The notes: a model not told the origin generated them from the sequence alone. A stretch of 48,213 nucleotides of DNA from an uncultured Rhizobium sp. (GCA_964655235.1 CAZZLX010000002.1:1-48213), one strand, 5' to 3'. Counted from the stretch's first letter, positions 25,495-33,592 are shown. A program made the numbers and translations.

Positions 25495-27720
25495 TCAAGA
25501 GACGGCAGTGGCCGTCTCCGGCCCCCAGGAAAAGCCCCCGCCCCGATCCAGCGTCAACGCCGCCGGTGACAGCCTGTCGCACCAGCGCCGCCAGACCGCC
25601 CGATAGGCCGTATCGACATGGGCGGCATAGCGAGGCCCGTCGGCGAGCGCGGAGGCCGCCACCCGCTCCCGGAGCCCTTGGCGGACCCGGCGGAGCTGGT
25701 CCATGTCTCCGGCGAGGGCGACGGCCGTATCGATATAGGCATCGACATCGTCGACGACCAGTTCGTCCAGGCCGACCTGGCGAAGCAGGCTGGCGCCGAC
25801 TCGCGCGAAGAGGTGTGATCCCCGGAGACTGAGGACGGGCACGCCCATCCAGAGCGCGTCATAGGTCGTATTGCCGCCATTGACGAAAGGGTCGAGGCAG
25901 CAGTCGACATCGAGGTAAGGGGCATAGGCGCTCGCCGACCAGCCCGAAGCAACTATCCTCTCCGGCGCGATCCCGAGCCGCTGCAGAGCGACGAGGGGTG
26001 CTGAGGTCCGGTCGAGGACGCGCCACTTGAGGAGAAGGCGCGCCCGCGGCGCGCGCCGCAGGATCTCGGCCCAGGCGGACAGGACCGCGTCTCCGAGCTT
26101 CGCCGGGTTGTTGAACGACGCGAAGGTGAAGACGCCGCTCCGCTCCACAGGAGGAACCGTCGTGGGCGCGACCGCGTCGTCGGCCGGGTGATGGCAGGCA
26201 TAGACATCCGGCAACCGGATCAGCCGCTCGGAGTGATGGCGGTCGGCGATGGCCGGTGCGATCTCGGTGTCGGCGATCCGATAGTCCATCTGCGATAGGC
26301 CGGTCGTATTGGGATAGACGGGGAAGCCGATCTGGATCGGTGCCGCCCGCTGTCCGAAGGCGAGCAGGCGCCCATGCGGCAAGTGGCCGATGCAGTCGAC
26401 GAGGATGTCGATTTCGTCACGGCGCACCCGCGCCGCGAGCTCGTCGTCCGTCATGCGGCCTGTCTCGATCCAGCGATCGGTCGCCGACCGCAGGCGCCGG
26501 GCCATGTCGTCGCTCGGCGCGGGTCCCGCATAGGCCGTGATCTCGACCCGCCGGCGATCCTGATGCTCGAAAAGTCCGAGCAGCGCGTGTCCGACGGGAT
26601 GGCGGTGCAGGTTCGAGGAAACATAGCCGACGCGAAGGACGCGATCGGGGTCGCGCGTGTTCCCGAAGGCGAGCCTGGCGGTCGAACCGCGGACGAAGCG
26701 ATGAGCGAAGCGGCGATGCTCGAGGAAGATCGCGTCGAGGTCGGGTTCCTCGATGAAGCAGAGGCAGAAGAGGAGGTCGCTCATCAGCGTCGGGTTGGTC
26801 GGCTCGAGGACCACGGCGCGCCGGAACAAAGGCACCGCCCGGAGCGTTTCGCCGTGCTGCATGAGCAGCGCCCCGGCGTTGTGGTGGGCCTTCGCCGTCT
26901 CGGGAGCGAGCGCGACCGCATCCCGATAGTGGCGCTGTGCCTCTCCGAGCCTGTCCTGCGCATGGCGGAGAACGCCAAGATTGATATGCGCCGCCGAGAA
27001 GTCAGGCTCTATCGCCAACGCGCGGATCAGGGCCGCTTCCTGGAGAGCGCCGGTCGCCGCTTCGGCGAGGTTATGAAAGGCGATGCTGGACGAAGGCGCG
27101 AGAGCCAACGCCTTCCGGCAATTCGCTGCCGCTTCCGGTATGCGTCCGGCCTGGGCCAGGCCGCCGGCGAGATTGACCAGCGGGTCGGCTTCGTCCGGCG
27201 CCAGGCGAGCGGCCTCTCGGTAGCTGGCGATCGCGTCCGGATGGCGACCAGCCGCACGGAGCGCGTGTCCGAGATCGACATGGAGGTCGGGGTCGCCCGG
27301 CATCGCCGCGATCGCCCGGCGAAGGTGCTGTGCCGCGACCAGGGGTTCCATCGAACCAAGCGCCGCACGACCGAGGCAGGCCTGTGCCGGGGAGAGGTCC
27401 GGGGCGCGGGCGAGCGCCCGGCGAAACCCCCTCGCCGCCCGGACGACGCCGAGGCGATCGAGGGTTAGGGCGTGGTTGTAGAGACCGTGCGCATTGTGCG
27501 GATCGAGCGCGAGGGAGCGCGAGAAGTGGCAGAGCGCCGCCGTCGGGTCGTTTCCACGAAGCGACACCGCTCCGAGAGCAATGGCGAGTTCGGGCATGGA
27601 TGGACGGAACGCCAGCGTGCGACGAAGATTCCCGCGGGCTTTGCTGAGATCGCCGGCATCGGCACTGGCCAGCGCCTCGCCATAGAGGCGAGCAATCGTC
27701 GTCCCCTCGTCCTCTGTCAT
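25495..27720 (-). CDS. TPR-repeat protein fused to a GT41 (OGT/FlmG-like) glycosyltransferase domain
   Basis: I start it at ATG 27720 (MTEDEGTTIARLYGEAL), which overlaps the upstream stop as ATGA. About 10 TPR-like repeats, then RVLRVGYVSSNLHRHPVGH, IDILVDCIGHLPHGR, AAPIQIG, FTFASFNNPAKL, and LDPFVNGGNTTYDALWMGVPVLSL. Confidence 0.85.
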   Translation of the reverse strand: MTEDEGTTIARLYGEALASADAGDLSKARGNLRRTLAFRPSMPELAIALGAVSLRGNDPTAALCHFSRSLALDPHNAHGLYNHALTLDRLGVVRAARGFRRALARAPDLSPAQACLGRAALGSMEPLVAAQHLRRAIAAMPGDPDLHVDLGHALRAAGRHPDAIASYREAARLAPDEADPLVNLAGGLAQAGRIPEAAANCRKALALAPSSSIAFHNLAEAATGALQEAALIRALAIEPDFSAAHINLGVLRHAQDRLGEAQRHYRDAVALAPETAKAHHNAGALLMQHGETLRAVPLFRRAVVLEPTNPTLMSDLLFCLCFIEEPDLDAIFLEHRRFAHRFVRGSTARLAFGNTRDPDRVLRVGYVSSNLHRHPVGHALLGLFEHQDRRRVEITAYAGPAPSDDMARRLRSATDRWIETGRMTDDELAARVRRDEIDILVDCIGHLPHGRLLAFGQRAAPIQIGFPVYPNTTGLSQMDYRIADTEIAPAIADRHHSERLIRLPDVYACHHPADDAVAPTTVPPVERSGVFTFASFNNPAKLGDAVLSAWAEILRRAPRARLLLKWRVLDRTSAPLVALQRLGIAPERIVASGWSASAYAPYLDVDCCLDPFVNGGNTTYDALWMGVPVLSLRGSHLFARVGASLLRQVGLDELVVDDVDAYIDTAVALAGDMDQLRRVRQGLRERVAASALADGPRYAAHVDTAYRAVWRRWCDRLSPAALTLDRGGGFSWGPETATAVS

Positions 27721-29024
27721 GTGCGGGGCCAGGCGCCGACCTCGGCCAAGGCGGAAAGCATGCCGTCGATGCGCCTGGACCAGGACCACGTCGACGCCAT
27801 GGCCGCCGCCGCATCCCGTCCCATCGCCCTCGCCTCCTCGCGCCGTGCGTAAAGCTGCTCCAGCGCGTCGACCACGTCCATCGGATCGGTTTCACCCCAT
27901 CCGACTTGTCCGGCAGCGGCGGGGTTGGTCGAGATAGCCGACTGGCGCTCGAGCGCCACGCAGGGAACCGACGCGATCAGGTCGAGGTGGCCGGTATTGG
28001 CTGAGAGGATCGTCGGTACGCCGCAGGCGAGCGTCTCCATCGCCGCGAGATTGGTGCCACCCTCCGCCCGGCTGACGAACACCGCGGCGTCGACGTCCCC
28101 CAGCCAGGAGGCCATCGCCTCGTTCGAGATCGCCGGCAGCAGCGCCATGCTGTCCAGCGGGACGCCGTTCCGTGCCAGCCAATCCGACACCGACTCCGGG
28201 CTGTCGGCGGCGACGGGCGCGCCCGTGCCATGGGGTGATTGCGCCAGATCGGCGGCGGCGCCGGGAAAAGGCGACGACCAGGCGGTGAGCAGGAGCGCGT
28301 CGGGATGACGCGCATGGAAGATGCGGAAGGCCGCGACCACGATGTCCTGGCCCTTCCTGAACTCGAGCTTGCCGCCCGAGAAGATCGTGAAGCGGTCGCC
28401 GAAGACGCCTCGGCGCGGCTGTGGCCTGAACAGGGTCGTGTCGACGCCCTGCGGGCAGACGGCGACGTGCTCGATGCCGAAGCTGCGCAGCACTTCGCCG
28501 TTCCACGCGGACCCGGCGAGCAAGAGGCGATAGCGGGCGGCTTGGGCCACGGAGTTTCCCGGACGGGTGTCTTCGAGAAAGGCCATGCCGATGTCCGGTG
28601 CACCGAAGACCCTGGCGCTCAGCTGACCGGCGCCGAGACCGTTGCCCAGCCCATGCAAGACCGGGAAGTCGAGATGAAGGTCGTCGCCGGCTGTCAGGTG
28701 CGGCGCTATCTCGCGTTGCGCCGCCAACGCCGGCGCGAGCGCGGGATCGGCCCTCGCTTCGTCGCCGAGGAGATCCTCGGTGTAGAGCGGAACCGGGACG
28801 GCGAGGCCTCGGCGCGTGAGGTCACGCGCTAGGTTCAGACCGAACACGCCCCATCCCGTGAAACTGGTGAAGGTCCAGCGGATGCCGAGACGCGGCAAGG
28901 GAGCGCCGGGCATGCTCAAGCTGCTCGCTTCGAGCCCCCGCTCCGGGACGTTGAAGCTCGGCAAAGGACGATCGGGCGCGGCATCGGGGACTTCCCAGGC
29001 AACGGCTTTTCGCTCAGCGCGCAC
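27717..29024 (-). CDS. GT4-family (group 1) glycosyltransferase
   Basis: Blocks seen: FTIFSGGKLEFRKGQDIVVAAF and VFVSRAEGGTNLAAMETLACGVPTILSANTGHLDLI (EX7E-like). The start is uncertain; ATG 28910 (MPGAPLPRLGIRWTFTSFTGWGVFGLNL) is an equally plausible shorter start. Confidence 0.65.
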   Translation of the reverse strand: MRAERKAVAWEVPDAAPDRPLPSFNVPERGLEASSLSMPGAPLPRLGIRWTFTSFTGWGVFGLNLARDLTRRGLAVPVPLYTEDLLGDEARADPALAPALAAQREIAPHLTAGDDLHLDFPVLHGLGNGLGAGQLSARVFGAPDIGMAFLEDTRPGNSVAQAARYRLLLAGSAWNGEVLRSFGIEHVAVCPQGVDTTLFRPQPRRGVFGDRFTIFSGGKLEFRKGQDIVVAAFRIFHARHPDALLLTAWSSPFPGAAADLAQSPHGTGAPVAADSPESVSDWLARNGVPLDSMALLPAISNEAMASWLGDVDAAVFVSRAEGGTNLAAMETLACGVPTILSANTGHLDLIASVPCVALERQSAISTNPAAAGQVGWGETDPMDVVDALEQLYARREEARAMGRDAAAAMASTWSWSRRIDGMLSALAEVGAWPRT

Positions 29025-29102
29025 AGTCGCACAGATCGCCTGGAACTCGCTACGTCGGCTGCGACGAGAGTCGGCTCCGGTATCTTGAGCCCGAGGCGCG
29101 GG

Positions 29103-30992
29103 TCAAAAGACCGGACGACGCAGGCGCCGTGAAGGTTCGGGAATCGGAAGGCCGTTCTCGGCGCAAAGGGCGCGGATCCTCTCCTCGTCGGCTCCTGACG
29201 CGTCGGGGTGCAGCACCACGCCACGGACGAGCTCGATCGGGTCGATCGGCGGGGCATGTGCCAGAAGGCCCGGGGTAGCGGTGGATTCGAAGTGGTTGGC
29301 CTCGAACAGCGGCTCGCGGCCCTCTGGCGTTTGCACGACCACCCGCACCTCGCGCTCGAAACTGTACATCGAATCCTTGTGCATGATGTCGTGCAATGGG
29401 CTGGTCGGAGATCGCGGGCTCATGCCGTCGACGTAGCAGACGGTGCCGATCGAGGCGTAGGCGGGGACCTGGGCGCGGAGCGTGCGATAGGTGGTGCGGA
29501 TCGCAACCGAGTCCGGCCGTGGTGCGTAGCGCCCCCACATCGCGTGGCTGTCGCCGGCGCCGAGGCGCCAGCAGCTGACGTAAGCCCCACGCGCCCGCCA
29601 CGGCGCGTCCTCGCGAATGTCCCGACGGCCTTGCGTGATGTCCGGCGACCCGTCGTCGAGCGGGTCGCCGAGGTCAGCGACCGGCGCCATGTACAGGCGG
29701 TTCTCGCGCAGCAGCCAGGCGAAATCATCGAAGCCGAGGTAACGCCAAAGCGCCGCATCGGGATCGTCGGGTGGGGAGAAGACGGGGGGCGCCGGCTCGG
29801 GCGGTGTGGCCGCAATCGGCCTCGCGCCCGTCGGAGGTGACGCCTGCGGCAGCACCATGCGGGTGACGTTGTTCCGCCAGATCTCGGCGTCTCGGACATA
29901 GCGGCGCGCGGTGTCGACCGAGCGATGCCGGGTCTGGTTCATGATCTGCATCAGATCGGCGCCGGCATTCGAGGCGGAGGTGGCTAGGCCGGCGCGAAGG
30001 CTGTGCCCGGCGTAGCGCTCCGGATTCAGGCCTGCGGTGACCGCTGCCGTCTTGACGGCGCGGGCGACACCTCGGTCGGAAAGCCGGAAAGGCCTCACCC
30101 TGCCGCCCCGAGTGATCTGGTGGAAGAGCGCGCCCGGTTCCTGCCCGCGTAGCGCAAGCCAGGCCTGGAGCGCCTGGACCGGGCAGAGCTTCGGGTCGGC
30201 CGAGCGGTGGATGCCGACCTCCTCCCCTGCCCCGGCCTGGTCCGTCTTCGAAAAGCGGATCAGCACCTTGAGGCCGCTGTCGGTGACGGTGAGGTCGGCT
30301 AGGTCCAGGGCGACGAGTTCGGAACGCCGCATTGCGCCACCGAAGCCGATCAGGAGAAGCGCCCGGTCGCGGGTGCCGAGAGGCGTGGACGGCAGAGTCC
30401 GCATCATGAGGGCCAGCTCGTCGGCGAGGACGGGTTGCGCCTGCATTGCGCGGGTCCCGACGGTGCGGGCAATGCCGTCCATTACGCGCGCAATGCGAGG
30501 ATCCTTGAGGTCGAGCACCAACCCGGCGGCGCGATGGGCGGCGACGATGGCCGAGACCCTCATGCGAATGGTCGCATATTTGAATTGTCGCTCGGGCAGG
30601 CCGGCCAGATACATGCCGACGAGCTGCGGGTCGCCCGACAGCGGCGCGATGCCCAGGCGGTCGCACCAGGCGGCATAGTCGGCAAAGGACGATCGGTAGG
30701 CCCGCTGGGTGTTGAAGGCGCGGGCCTGGGCGGAAAAGGCATCGGCCTGGAAGGCGTGCCGGGCGAGATCCGCCTCGCTCGCCGCGGGCGAGGTTTGGAT
30801 CGCTCGTACTGCCGGCAGGATCTCGTCCGAGGGAGCCGCCCCTATCGCCCCATACCGGTCGTCTTGCGGGCTCATCGAGAAAGCATACGGCTCGAGAGCG
30901 ATGAGCCCAACAAAATCCGTCCGATAGACATGATTATCGGACGGATAGAATTTCGGCCGGCGAGGCTCGCGCTGCTGGTTGGACGTGGTCAC
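29103..30992 (-). CDS. Tyrosine recombinase/integrase fused to a C-terminal DUF2971-like domain
   Basis: The N-terminal ~390 aa has a SAM-like core-binding region (NTQRAYRSSFADYAAWC). The catalytic residues are in GAMRRSEL (R), GHSLRAG (H-x-x-R), and HRSVDTARRYV (H...Y). The C-terminal ~230 aa has LWRYLGFDDFAWLLRENRLYMAPVADLGDPLD, AYVSCW....SHAMWGRYA, and YSFEREVRVV, matching remembered DUF2971 motifs. Confidence 0.8.
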   Translation of the reverse strand: MTTSNQQREPRRPKFYPSDNHVYRTDFVGLIALEPYAFSMSPQDDRYGAIGAAPSDEILPAVRAIQTSPAASEADLARHAFQADAFSAQARAFNTQRAYRSSFADYAAWCDRLGIAPLSGDPQLVGMYLAGLPERQFKYATIRMRVSAIVAAHRAAGLVLDLKDPRIARVMDGIARTVGTRAMQAQPVLADELALMMRTLPSTPLGTRDRALLLIGFGGAMRRSELVALDLADLTVTDSGLKVLIRFSKTDQAGAGEEVGIHRSADPKLCPVQALQAWLALRGQEPGALFHQITRGGRVRPFRLSDRGVARAVKTAAVTAGLNPERYAGHSLRAGLATSASNAGADLMQIMNQTRHRSVDTARRYVRDAEIWRNNVTRMVLPQASPPTGARPIAATPPEPAPPVFSPPDDPDAALWRYLGFDDFAWLLRENRLYMAPVADLGDPLDDGSPDITQGRRDIREDAPWRARGAYVSCWRLGAGDSHAMWGRYAPRPDSVAIRTTYRTLRAQVPAYASIGTVCYVDGMSPRSPTSPLHDIMHKDSMYSFEREVRVVVQTPEGREPLFEANHFESTATPGLLAHAPPIDPIELVRGVVLHPDASGADEERIRALCAENGLPIPEPSRRLRRPVF

Positions 30993-31091: not shown

Positions 31092-32213
31092 ATGCCGGAG
31101 CGACTTCCTCCCGATTGGCAGCTTCTCGTCGCCAGTTGCGCGGCTGATATCGAGCGCGCGGCAGCGTCGATCGGGCGCCTCGATCAGGCCGTATCGCGGA
31201 GTCGGATCGGCGATGCCTGGAGCCGAAGAAGCGTTTATCCGGCGACGGTCGCCTGCCTCGCGGCCGATGGGCATTCCTTTGAAATAGAAAGGCTTTTTGC
31301 CTTGGCCGGCGGATTGCCGGTCAATCGTATAAGGGATTTCGGGGCCGACAATCGGGCGCTCGGAACCTGGCGAGGAATCCAGAAATGGACGGGCGCGGCG
31401 CCCTCGGAGAGGGTGTTCGCGGACGCCGAGTCCGGCTCCGAAGACATCGAGGATGCGCTCGCGGGCTTTCATGCGACGGTCGGGGCTCCGGCCCTCCTCG
31501 GCGCGGTCATGGGCTTCCGGTCTTGGCTGGAGGCAGGCCAGCCGGCGAGTGCGGCCATGACCGCCTTGCCCTCGTTCCTGGCCGTCCGGGGCCTCACCGG
31601 TTCCCCCATTCCCTGGCTGGCCGGAGGCCTGAGGCGCGCCGCCGGGATCGTCGGCAGCTATCCGGCGAAGGCCTGGACCGTCCGGGCCGTGCAGGAGCTG
31701 GCCGAGACGGCGGCCGCCGGCATGCGCGACCTTGAGGCCCTGACCGGGCTCTGGCGATCCTGGCATGCGAAGCTTGGTCCCCGGAGGCGGACCTCGCGGC
31801 TGCCGGAGGTCGTCGATCTCCTCGTCGCCCATCCAGTCCAGTCGCCCCGGCAGGTTTCCCGGGTGCTGGGAACCAGCCTGAGAGGTGCTTCGAAGCTGCT
31901 CGACGAGCTCAAGGAGCTGGGCATCGTCGTGTCCCCTATGTCGCGTCGCTCCTGGCGGGTCGTTATCGCGGCCGATCTGGCATCGCTCCAGGATCAGGTT
32001 CACCAGGTGCCGCGGCCGTCCGGCGAGAGGCCTCATTCTGTGCCTGCCCGCCTGCTTCCGGCGGCGCCCAAGACCGGGGCGCCCTTGGCGCTTTCTGACG
32101 CCAAGATCTCATCCCTCCGGTCCGTGATCTCGGAGAGCGACGACGTCATCCGGCGAGTCACCCAACGCCTGTCGGAGATGAGGCCCCGCATCCCGCGCCG
32201 AGACGTATCTTAG
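31092..32213 (+). CDS. Plasmid-associated hypothetical protein with a probable C-terminal winged-helix/HTH (DUF1612 / RHE_PE00001-like)
   Basis: It is 373 aa. The C-terminal segment LPEVVDLLVAHPVQSPRQVSRVLGTSLRGASKLLDELKELGIVV looks like an HTH. The length and the context next to an integrase and parA fit the rhizobial-plasmid DUF1612 family as I remember it. The assignment is tentative. Confidence 0.4.
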   Translation: MPERLPPDWQLLVASCAADIERAAASIGRLDQAVSRSRIGDAWSRRSVYPATVACLAADGHSFEIERLFALAGGLPVNRIRDFGADNRALGTWRGIQKWTGAAPSERVFADAESGSEDIEDALAGFHATVGAPALLGAVMGFRSWLEAGQPASAAMTALPSFLAVRGLTGSPIPWLAGGLRRAAGIVGSYPAKAWTVRAVQELAETAAAGMRDLEALTGLWRSWHAKLGPRRRTSRLPEVVDLLVAHPVQSPRQVSRVLGTSLRGASKLLDELKELGIVVSPMSRRSWRVVIAADLASLQDQVHQVPRPSGERPHSVPARLLPAAPKTGAPLALSDAKISSLRSVISESDDVIRRVTQRLSEMRPRIPRRDVS

Positions 32214-32235
32214 TCGCACAGTCTATCAGTCGCCC

Positions 32236-32476
32236 ATGCGAACAACGTGCTGCTAGTCAAGCGATTGATTTTCATCATAAAGTCTGTGCACTTATGCGAA
32301 TGGATCGTTGGATCGCTTTACGCGCATTGAGATAATGGACGCCTGAAGCGAACTATGAAATTTTGCGCATGGGTGCGCGGGGCGATTGGGGCGATGATTG
32401 GTTCATGCGAACGATCGCTTCATGCTGCTGATGCCCCGCGTCCATTCGACTGAACTCTTGAGGCGACTGTTCGCAT
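32236..32476. repeat. Repeated ATGCGAA / GATCGCTT motifs upstream of parA (candidate partition site or par operator)
   Basis: ATGCGAA occurs at 32236-32242, 32294-32300 and 32405-32411. The inverted copy TTCGCAT at 32470-32476 overlaps the parA ATG. GATCGCTT occurs at 32311-32318 and 32413-32420. The region is a 261-nt non-coding, lower-G+C gap. Confidence 0.45.
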
Positions 32477-33152
32477 GAGCGATCGAATTCCGGTGATCAC
32501 CGTCGCGGCGACCAAGGGCGGGGTCGGCAAGACCACCCTCACCCTCAATCTGGCGGCGGCGGCCGAGGCGGCGGGCCACGGTCCGGCGGCCATGATCGAC
32601 ATGGACCCGCAGGGCAGCCTCAGCCATCTCTACAATCGCCGAAAGGCCGAAAGCGGGCCGGTGATGCTGGGTTGCGAGAACGGCGACCTGTCCGGCGCCA
32701 TCGGTGCGGCCATGGCGTCGGGGATCAAGCTGGTCGTCATCGACACGCCGCCGGCCTTCCTCGACGTCACCCGGGCCTGCGTGTCGGCAGCCGATCTGGT
32801 CGTGGTTCCGGCACGGCCGTCGCCGCTCGACCTCGAGGCCGTCGGGCCCACCATCGACATCGTCGAGGAAGCGGGAAAGCCGCTTGTGCTCGTCGTCAAC
32901 GCCGCCAAGGCGCGCACGCGTCTCAAGGGCGATGCGGCCCGGGTCCTGGCCCAGCACGGCAAGGTCGCCCCGGTCGACCTGATCGATCGCATCATCTACT
33001 CGGAGGCGATGATCGAGGGCCTCTCGGCCTCGGAATACGATCCGGGCGGGCAGGCGACCAAGGAGATTCGCCAGCTTTACGACTACATCGACCGTCAGCT
33101 GCGCCGTGCCCGCGGCGCACCGGCCGGCAACCGCACCGGAGAGACCGCATGA
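32475..33152 (+). CDS. parA: ParA-family partition ATPase (small type Ib-like)
   Basis: Deviant Walker A VAATKGGVGKTTLTLNLA. Also MIDMDPQGS, VVIDTPP, and DLVVVPARPSPLDL. Confidence 0.9.
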   Translation: MSDRIPVITVAATKGGVGKTTLTLNLAAAAEAAGHGPAAMIDMDPQGSLSHLYNRRKAESGPVMLGCENGDLSGAIGAAMASGIKLVVIDTPPAFLDVTRACVSAADLVVVPARPSPLDLEAVGPTIDIVEEAGKPLVLVVNAAKARTRLKGDAARVLAQHGKVAPVDLIDRIIYSEAMIEGLSASEYDPGGQATKEIRQLYDYIDRQLRRARGAPAGNRTGETA

Positions 33153-33592
33153 GTCCGAAATCCCGTCCGCAGATGGACGCCTCGATCATCCGCCGTCCGG
33201 GCCAGGCCGCGCCGATCCAGGCGCCCAGCTATGCGCGGGTCGAGCCGGTTCCCGAGCCAGCTGCCCTCGCGCCGGCCGCGCCCCCGGCCCCACCGTCCGT
33301 CCCGGTTCCCGCTCCGGTGCAGACACCGATGCCCGAGCCCGCTCCCGCGGCGGCCTCGCGACCGCCTGAAGTGCCGCCCCCCCGCATCGAGGGAAAGTCG
33401 TCCGACAACATGCCCTGGCTCGGCGGGCGTCCGTGGACGCGCAAGCTCGGCATCCGGATGGACGAGGATCGCGTGCGGCGCATCAAGATCGTCGCAGCCG
33501 CACGCGGTGCGACGATGGAAGAACTGCTGGTCGAAGCCATCGACCAATACATGGAGAGGCACTGGCCGGAGGTCTCGCGGGGACTGCGTTAG
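33149..33592 (+). CDS. Ribbon-helix-helix partition/centromere-binding protein (ParG/ParB-like) with a Pro/Ala-rich linker
   Basis: ATG 33149 overlaps the parA TGA as ATGA. The C-terminal KLGIRMDEDRVRRIKIVAAARGATMEELLVEAIDQYMERH is a typical RHH fold signature. The N-terminal half is a low-complexity P/A tract. Confidence 0.65.
   Translation: MSPKSRPQMDASIIRRPGQAAPIQAPSYARVEPVPEPAALAPAAPPAPPSVPVPAPVQTPMPEPAPAAASRPPEVPPPRIEGKSSDNMPWLGGRPWTRKLGIRMDEDRVRRIKIVAAARGATMEELLVEAIDQYMERHWPEVSRGLR

Follow-up and report, generated by a model that had tools for sequence, protein, structure and literature searches.

XerS/difSL is a single-recombinase Xer-type system in which the site adjoins the recombinase gene. 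The loxP site of phage P1 is similarly placed, a palindrome of 13-bp arms and an 8-bp spacer that lies beside the gene for Cre, with one copy per replicon. We know of no Cre or Xer protein that carries a C-terminal enzymatic domain. Here we describe a gene, Int::ART, in which a Cre-like tyrosine recombinase is joined in frame to a predicted ADP-ribosyltransferase (ART) domain. The gene lies in a 48,213-nucleotide stretch of DNA from an uncultured Rhizobium sp. (GCA_964655235.1, CAZZLX010000002.1:1-48213); this whole stretch is referred to as the window, and its source genome as G000.

Several described proteins resemble the C-terminal half of Int::ART. DarT of the DarTG system acts on single-stranded DNA, where it ADP-ribosylates thymidine or guanosine, and PDC-S31, a single-gene system named by PADLOC, is itself only a candidate for defence. 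An earlier reading of the window (the original prediction) recognised a tyrosine recombinase fused to a DUF2971 domain and took DUF2971 to be uncharacterised. That description is out of date, as DUF2971 has been predicted to be a DarT-like ART with a modified H-Y-E active site and an ExE motif III (PMC12522546), and Aristaios, an experimentally tested anti-phage protein of lactococcal plasmids, belongs to DUF2971 and has an ART fold (PMC11381338).

We propose, with moderate confidence, that the locus records an event restricted to one lineage, in which a Cre-like replicon-maintenance recombinase captured a single-gene DarT-like ART. The product would be bifunctional, with an ART half that is probably active in G002, a second species of the genus, and weakened in the window copy.

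Results

A tyrosine recombinase and a second domain in one reading frame

The gene occupies a single uninterrupted frame on the minus strand (29103..30992), which could encode 629 amino acids from a GTG; residue numbers below follow this frame. The true start is more likely to be M40 (ATG at 30875), giving a protein of 590 residues, because it is where the sister-species protein starts, as does the gene in one independent call, and because codons 16-26 of the longer frame are taken up by a palindrome whose conservation is at the DNA level. The encoded protein has the full set of tyrosine-recombinase catalytic residues, followed by a Pro-rich linker and then by a C-terminal domain of ~215 residues (Table 1). 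The motifs quoted in the original prediction are in place, with AMRRSE at residues 220-225, GHSLRAG at 329-335, TRHRSV at 354-359 and RRYVRD at 363-368 in the recombinase half, the Pro-rich stretch at about 386-412, and WRYLG (416-420), YVSCW (471-475) and FEREVR (545-550) beyond it.

The recombinase half is matched by the Pfam Phage_integrase model (PF00589) over residues 190-369 (64.7 bits against a cut-off of 27.1, E = 1.1e-17), and NCBIfam gives a weak XerC/XerD-type similarity. The N-terminal core-binding model PF02899 (SAM-like) scored 14.6 bits, under its cut-off of 22.3, although the alignment with Cre does span the N-terminal domain. Cre entries are the best relatives of solved structure (E = 7e-11), and they align over essentially the whole length with R222, K249, H330, R333, H356 and Y365 in register with Cre R173, K201, H289, R292, W315 and Y324. 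The likeness to Cre thus extends to the full R-K-H-R-(H/W)-Y set, whereas overall relatedness is low (45 bits) and the fifth catalytic position is W in Cre and H in the window protein. The ratio of nonsynonymous to synonymous substitution rates (dN/dS) in the recombinase core is 0.13 between the window and G002, which argues that the recombinase half is a functional gene. Relatives of 47-52% identity occur on 793 alphaproteobacterial plasmid records, where one adjoins vapBC and another a Tni-type transposon. All other relatives of the recombinase are unfused proteins of about 350 residues.

The continuity of the frame, which had been claimed from the window alone, recurs in independent material. 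At 90% identity the window protein clusters with sequences from separate assemblies, giving five members from three sources (ENA, Logan and NCBI), one of which is a second allele of the same length and 93% identity. G002 encodes a fused protein of 610 residues that is 74% identical across both halves, again with no stop between them, and the two genes share 78% nucleotide identity. Within the linker there is no start codon from which a separate ART gene could be translated. A complete tyrosine recombinase joined in frame to a DUF2971-related domain is borne out.

Table 1. Features of the Int::ART locus, in window coordinates
Feature	Position	Strand	Remarks
Int::ART coding sequence, from likely start M40	29103..30875	(-)	590 aa plus stop; maximal open reading frame extends to GTG at 30992
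Cre-like tyrosine recombinase part, residues 40-385	29838..30875	(-)	Catalytic R222, K249, H330, R333, H356, Y365
Pro-rich linker, residues 386-412	29757..29837	(-)	Recombinase's own C-terminal tail and 5' edge of inserted cassette
Predicted DarT-like ADP-ribosyltransferase domain, residues 413-629, PDC-S31 / DUF2971 superfamily	29106..29756	(-)	W-R-Y, YVSCW and ExE (E545, E547) kept
763-bp segment: ART cassette and 37 nt of 3' flank	29066..29828	(-)	In G000 and G002; not in the collinear G001 locus
Codons D446-D447, in place of E-G pair	29652..29657	(-)	E-G invariant in 43 homologues and the G002 copy
23-residue deletion site, between residues 450 and 451	29640..29645	(-)	Most of a helical hairpin of all relatives lost
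12-8-12 inverted repeat ATCCGTCCGATA-N8-TATCGGACGGAT, candidate loxP-like core site and/or operator	30915..30946	.	Conserved arms, variable spacer
Divergent gene, 373-aa protein with C-terminal HTH_13 domain	31092..32213	(+)	Beside recombinase in G001, G002 and G004
Small ParA-type ATPase gene	32475..33152	(+)	Followed by a ribbon-helix-helix coding stretch
Ribbon-helix-helix coding stretch, 3' of the ParA gene	about 33437-33562	(+)	

The C-terminal domain is related to PDC-S31 and DUF2971 and is predicted to have a DarT-like fold

Direct Pfam and NCBIfam scans gave no match to the C-terminal domain alone. An exhaustive phmmer search with this domain returned 3,773 representatives, and for 648 the match was at E<=1e-10. 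With few exceptions, family members are stand-alone proteins of about 250-265 residues, and the alignment runs from their own N-terminal end (HPxFxQPxD...WRY) as far as the C-terminus; since relatives align end to end, the fusion holds an entire former gene. Against a profile built from 43 independent homologues, the C-terminal 240 residues scored 231 bits (E = 2e-68), far beyond chance. The window protein also matches the PADLOC model PDLC04993 of PDC-S31 (E = 2.1e-8), and 43 of 44 family members are matched by PDC-S31 models (best E = 4.3e-25). The C-terminal domain is thus like PDC-S31 by direct match to a hidden Markov model (HMM), and the family is sporadic, with stand-alone copies in 12 of 401 genomes of the class. 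It differs in that PDC-S31 proteins stand alone at about 255 residues, whereas here a whole protein of this kind, lacking a start codon of its own, forms the C-terminal domain of a recombinase.

Direct membership of DUF2971, as the original prediction had it, did not survive. The Pfam model (PF11185; cut-off 22 bits) gave no match even at E<=10, either to the C-terminal domain or to the whole protein; a genome-wide search of G000 with it found nothing, and it matched 10 of the 44 homologues weakly. What did stand is a relationship at the level of profiles, where hhalign aligned the family with 17 above-cut-off DUF2971 proteins over 224 columns (98.7% probability, E = 3.2e-16). By this profile-profile comparison the family is homologous to DUF2971 over its full length, and the likeness to Aristaios rests on the published fold of that protein. 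The motifs (N)D..E, MW..Y, V.Y and KH..F..E.E.R are common to both, whereas motif I is W-R-Y in the present family and L-Y-H-Y in DUF2971. Compared with the H-Y-E active-site pattern, the ExE is present (E545, E547) and motif I offers R instead of H, with motif II assigned by inference only. A remote plasmid homologue of the C-terminal domain carries a DUF2971 annotation.

To compare folds, AlphaFold (AF2) models of the C-terminal domain were used, with a predicted local distance difference test score (pLDDT) of 86 for the window copy and 95 for the G002 copy. The top seven Foldseek matches to the window model are all DarT (E = 6e-5 to 1e-2, prob 0.99-1.0), and DarT also leads in VIA-align (Z 8.4 and 8.3 over 138-143 residues, root-mean-square deviation 4-4.9). 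Tpt1, scabin and other ARTs including pierisin follow, and the G002 model gives the same outcome with DarT on top. The catalytic Glu-containing strand (ExE) is kept, although TM-scores between DarT and the C-domain models are only 0.39-0.48 and there are large helical inserts. The likeness to DarT is one of predicted fold, as no sequence match to DarT was found in Pfam or the PDB, even with the family profile at E<=10. The sole PDB sequence match of that profile, RecU at E = 0.58, was treated as noise.

We infer that the C-terminal domain is a NAD+-dependent nucleic-acid ADP-ribosyltransferase whose role would be that of a defence or addiction toxin. The gene has no linked antitoxin of the DarG macrodomain or NADAR type, its neighbours being a GT4 glycosyltransferase and the HTH_13 protein; the source genome holds one Macro gene, on another contig, and no NADAR was found in it. 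With no linked antitoxin, a DarTG-type toxin-antitoxin reading was rejected. The missing antitoxin is expected of single-gene systems.

The architecture was found in two sister species only

The fusion is rare, in that just two protein clusters with this architecture were found, both in one genus. A word-indexed search with the C-terminal domain among proteins of 345-1101 residues returned only these two, and a profile search among proteins of 477-2000 residues returned the same two and three non-integrase fusions with NHL/Vgb-type or unknown N-termini. The ART family has more than 3,700 representatives, and no other integrase fusion was found among them. Eight of the family's 150 best representatives exceed about 330 residues; two of these carry AP2 DNA-binding domains and none an integrase domain. 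The ESM Atlas yielded no cluster with this architecture, just ordinary integrase clusters of ~350 residues, and a literature search for recombinase-ART fusions or PDC-S31 found nothing relevant. These architecture searches are of limited sensitivity, and their results are to be read as "not found" rather than "absent". On the sequences covered, Int::ART appears as a new domain architecture that is restricted to two sister species.

Stand-alone ART genes often have a lower G+C content than the DNA around them, and their neighbours are HEPN-NTase, Schlafen-type or hypothetical genes. When an integrase HMM was run at ten stand-alone ART loci, a recombinase remnant was seen near just one, so there is no general linkage between ART and integrase genes. 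Among the longer family members, the metagenomic P0218 and P0259 have N-terminal AP2 domains, and the protein at L036:6001-7470 (-) has an N-terminal extension of ~250 residues, of unknown type, that adjoins an integrase fragment. In P0278 and P0279 the ART is joined to repeats of the NHL/Vgb-lyase type.

A single insertion probably accounts for the fusion

Collinearity with G002 (84% nucleotide identity) and with G001, another sister species (72-78%), extends over the 20 kb in which the gene lies. Homology to G001 ends at window position 29829 and resumes at 29065, so that 763 bp are present or absent as a block. G001 keeps the recombinase, the upstream 12-8-12 site and the whole surrounding island, and is without the ART. 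The G001 recombinase has ...LVLP as its last residues; the next codon is TAG, in place of the CAG (Q386) of G000 and G002, and the ~20 nt past it retain a likeness to the beginning of the linker in G000. In G004, whose recombinase is more distant, the protein has a Pro-rich tail of 17 residues similar to the linker. The stop or sense status of codon 386 and the G004 tail support a junction in which the linker consists of the C-terminal tail native to the recombinase and, joined to it, the 5' edge of the ART cassette. The ART family was otherwise not found in the 12 genomes of the same bacterial family, and one gain in the common ancestor of G000 and G002 is the simplest history.

The ART half is constrained overall and looks partly eroded in the window lineage

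Between G000 and G002, dN/dS is 0.37 for the ART overall, 0.53 for its catalytic middle and 0.15 for its last 69 residues, compared with the 0.13 of the recombinase core; synonymous divergence (dS) over the ART part is about 0.65. As both species carry the fusion, all of this divergence arose in the fused state, and the ART has therefore been constrained as a part of the fusion. The overall ratio indicates, on these two sequences, purifying selection on the fused ART since the species split.

The two copies have fared differently. None of the 11 family-invariant residues is changed in G002. In the 43 homologues 46 columns are conserved at >=70%; six of these are altered in the window copy only and one in the G002 copy only. 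The six include the replacement of the invariant E-G by D-D, directly after which 23 residues are deleted. The hairpin, which consists of two helices and is mostly removed by this deletion, has a pLDDT of 94-98 in the G002 model, and the corresponding stretch has 43-58 in the window model. Against the family profile the window copy scores 231 bits and the G002 copy 300 bits. In relative-rate counts the window lineage is the faster with 8 of 8 outgroups, four of these comparisons being nominally significant and the eight not independent of one another.

The second allele (P0272) differs from the window allele (P0001) at 1 of 299 residues in the recombinase core and at 16 of 33 around the hairpin deletion (residues 438-470). 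In the N-terminal tail (residues 42-86) the two differ at 17 of 45. These variable stretches may be either hypervariable segments or a recombination mosaic. In DarT1, R52 and D54 are catalytic and lie between strands 1 and 2, the equivalent stretch (PMC11543638); they might correspond to the E-G motif. Taken on its sequence, the window copy has probably had its ART activity weakened or lost, while the G002 copy looks intact and is probably active.

This pattern of change also bears on another explanation, in which the fusion is a neutral accident and the ART is functionless in both species and heading for loss. The E-G pair and the 23-residue hairpin are gone from the window lineage, the catalytic core evolves faster than the rest, allelic change is far denser around the deletion than in the recombinase core and G001 does well without an ART, as would be expected of a passenger. 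Set against this, a dN/dS well under 1 over that depth of divergence, a G002 copy with every invariant residue and a pLDDT-95 model, and the strongly conserved last 69 residues all speak for a domain that has been maintained. We therefore regard a dead ART in both species as unlikely.

A 12-8-12 site upstream and the neighbouring genes

The recombinase ATG is preceded, at a distance of 39 nt, by an inverted repeat with perfect 12-bp arms and an 8-bp spacer. The same arms, with differing spacers, occupy the same place in G001, G002, G004 and G007, making five congeneric genomes with the window. Every one of these genomes has exactly one copy of the site, which in all five closely precedes the recombinase gene, and conservation does not extend into the flanking sequence. 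A search of the DNA 5' of distant plasmid homologues of the recombinase found no palindrome of this kind. The repeat is a candidate for a loxP-like core site or an operator, having the anatomy of either. Like loxP, it is a palindrome with an 8-bp spacer that adjoins a recombinase gene and occurs once; its arms are shorter by one base pair, recombination at it is a prediction, and its setting is a plasmid-maintenance block containing parA and a ribbon-helix-helix (RHH) stretch.

The ParA-type ATPase and the RHH stretch look like a plasmid-type (Ib) partition module. An island of protein-glycosylation genes (Maf, GT41/TPR and nonulosonate) surrounds this module, which suggests that the island is on, or derived from, a plasmid or chromid. 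The G004 homologue of the divergent HTH_13 protein also matches DUF1403. Pfam DUF1612, a family that has been assigned to the Fido (Fic/Doc) superfamily (PMC2686095), gave no match to the window's HTH_13 protein. Immediately downstream of Int::ART is a glycosyltransferase gene (27717-29024, minus strand) with a Pfam 'GT4-conflict' match (E = 1e-8); it is not tied to the ART domain, because the same synteny is seen in G001, which has no ART. An exact 10-bp direct repeat, AGTCGCACAG, at 29025-29034 and 32212-32221 brackets the recombinase and HTH_13 genes (0.09 copies expected by chance). The pair is not kept in G002 or G001, and it is probably not an att-type boundary.

Discussion

The comparisons above are best accommodated by the capture of a free-standing ART gene. 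A promoter-less cassette, comprising a complete and normally free-standing DarT-like ART of ~255 residues, would have entered the recombinase gene within its 3' tail, a single event in the common ancestor of two sister species that gave one reading frame. The N-terminal half is most likely a working site-specific recombinase that acts on the single 12-8-12 site and autoregulates through it. Judging from context, its role would be replicon dimer resolution within a plasmid-type maintenance block (parA plus RHH). The ART half would merely be co-expressed with, and tethered to, the DNA-bound recombinase. After the species split, the ART would have been kept by purifying selection and partly eroded in the window lineage.

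Several points weigh against this proposal. Both enzyme activities are predictions from sequence and models. DNA of 68% G+C easily keeps frames open, which makes frame conservation weak evidence when taken alone. The 12-8-12 site could be an operator of the divergent helix-turn-helix protein rather than a recombination site, and the contig is not closed, so that the replicon may be a plasmid or a chromosome. The window copy may still be active, given that E446D is conservative and that the ExE, W-R-Y and YVSCW motifs are intact. Finally, the AP2 domains on other ART members are a hint that DNA-binding partners of this family may be functionally meaningful and not accidental.

Another possibility is close to the regulatory or targeting role that the original prediction had envisaged. 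The recombinase might bring the ART to its DNA site, where ADP-ribosylation of DNA in or beside the lox-like site, or of the recombinase, would gate recombination, stall replication of the replicon or act as a DNA-anchored trigger of abortive infection. Such coupling would agree with the retention of the fusion under purifying selection after the split, with nearest folds that are DNA- or RNA-modifying ARTs (DarT, Tpt1, scabin and pierisin), with the AP2 fusions in the same ART family and with the 11 of 11 family-invariant residues kept in G002. It is harder to reconcile with a fusion found in just two species of one genus, with G001 retaining recombinase, site and island without an ART, with ten stand-alone ART loci that have no systematic recombinase neighbour, and with the erosion of the window copy. 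No direct support for a coupled role was found; the evidence, including the invariant residues lost from the window copy, fits the capture of a free-standing defence or toxin gene, and we rate functional coupling as improbable. A related idea, that the protein is a natural DNA-site-tethered ART in which the Cre-like half holds the DarT-like half at a lox-like site and, by ADP-ribosylating DNA or the recombinase there, makes dimer resolution, replication arrest or abortive infection depend on the state of the recombination complex, we hold to be no less improbable.

The last alternative, that a sequencing or assembly error merged two neighbouring genes, might be entertained since the source genome is a fragmented metagenome-assembled genome (885 contigs, 79.5% complete), and is rejected with near certainty because the uninterrupted frame recurs in five assemblies from three sources, including the 93%-identical allele, and in G002 at 78% nucleotide identity, with a linker that has no start codon for a separate ART gene.

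On the capture reading, each half of Int::ART is of a known kind, the one belonging with Cre-like recombinases and the other with DarT-like / DUF2971-superfamily ARTs that have anti-phage members, and it is their fusion that we have not found described in the literature. The locus would be a dated and clean example of a stand-alone defence or toxin gene becoming a domain of a housekeeping-type mobile-DNA enzyme. Its history is readable as one 763-bp insertion, with the pre-insertion state kept in the sister species G001 and later erosion in one lineage. The 12-8-12 site offers a testable recombinase/site pair for a widespread and uncharacterised plasmid-borne recombinase family. If the G002 protein is active, it would provide a ready test of whether a recombinase-tethered DNA ADP-ribosyltransferase can give site-directed DNA modification and, if tethering holds true, it would connect site-specific recombination with DNA ADP-ribosylation in a way not described before.

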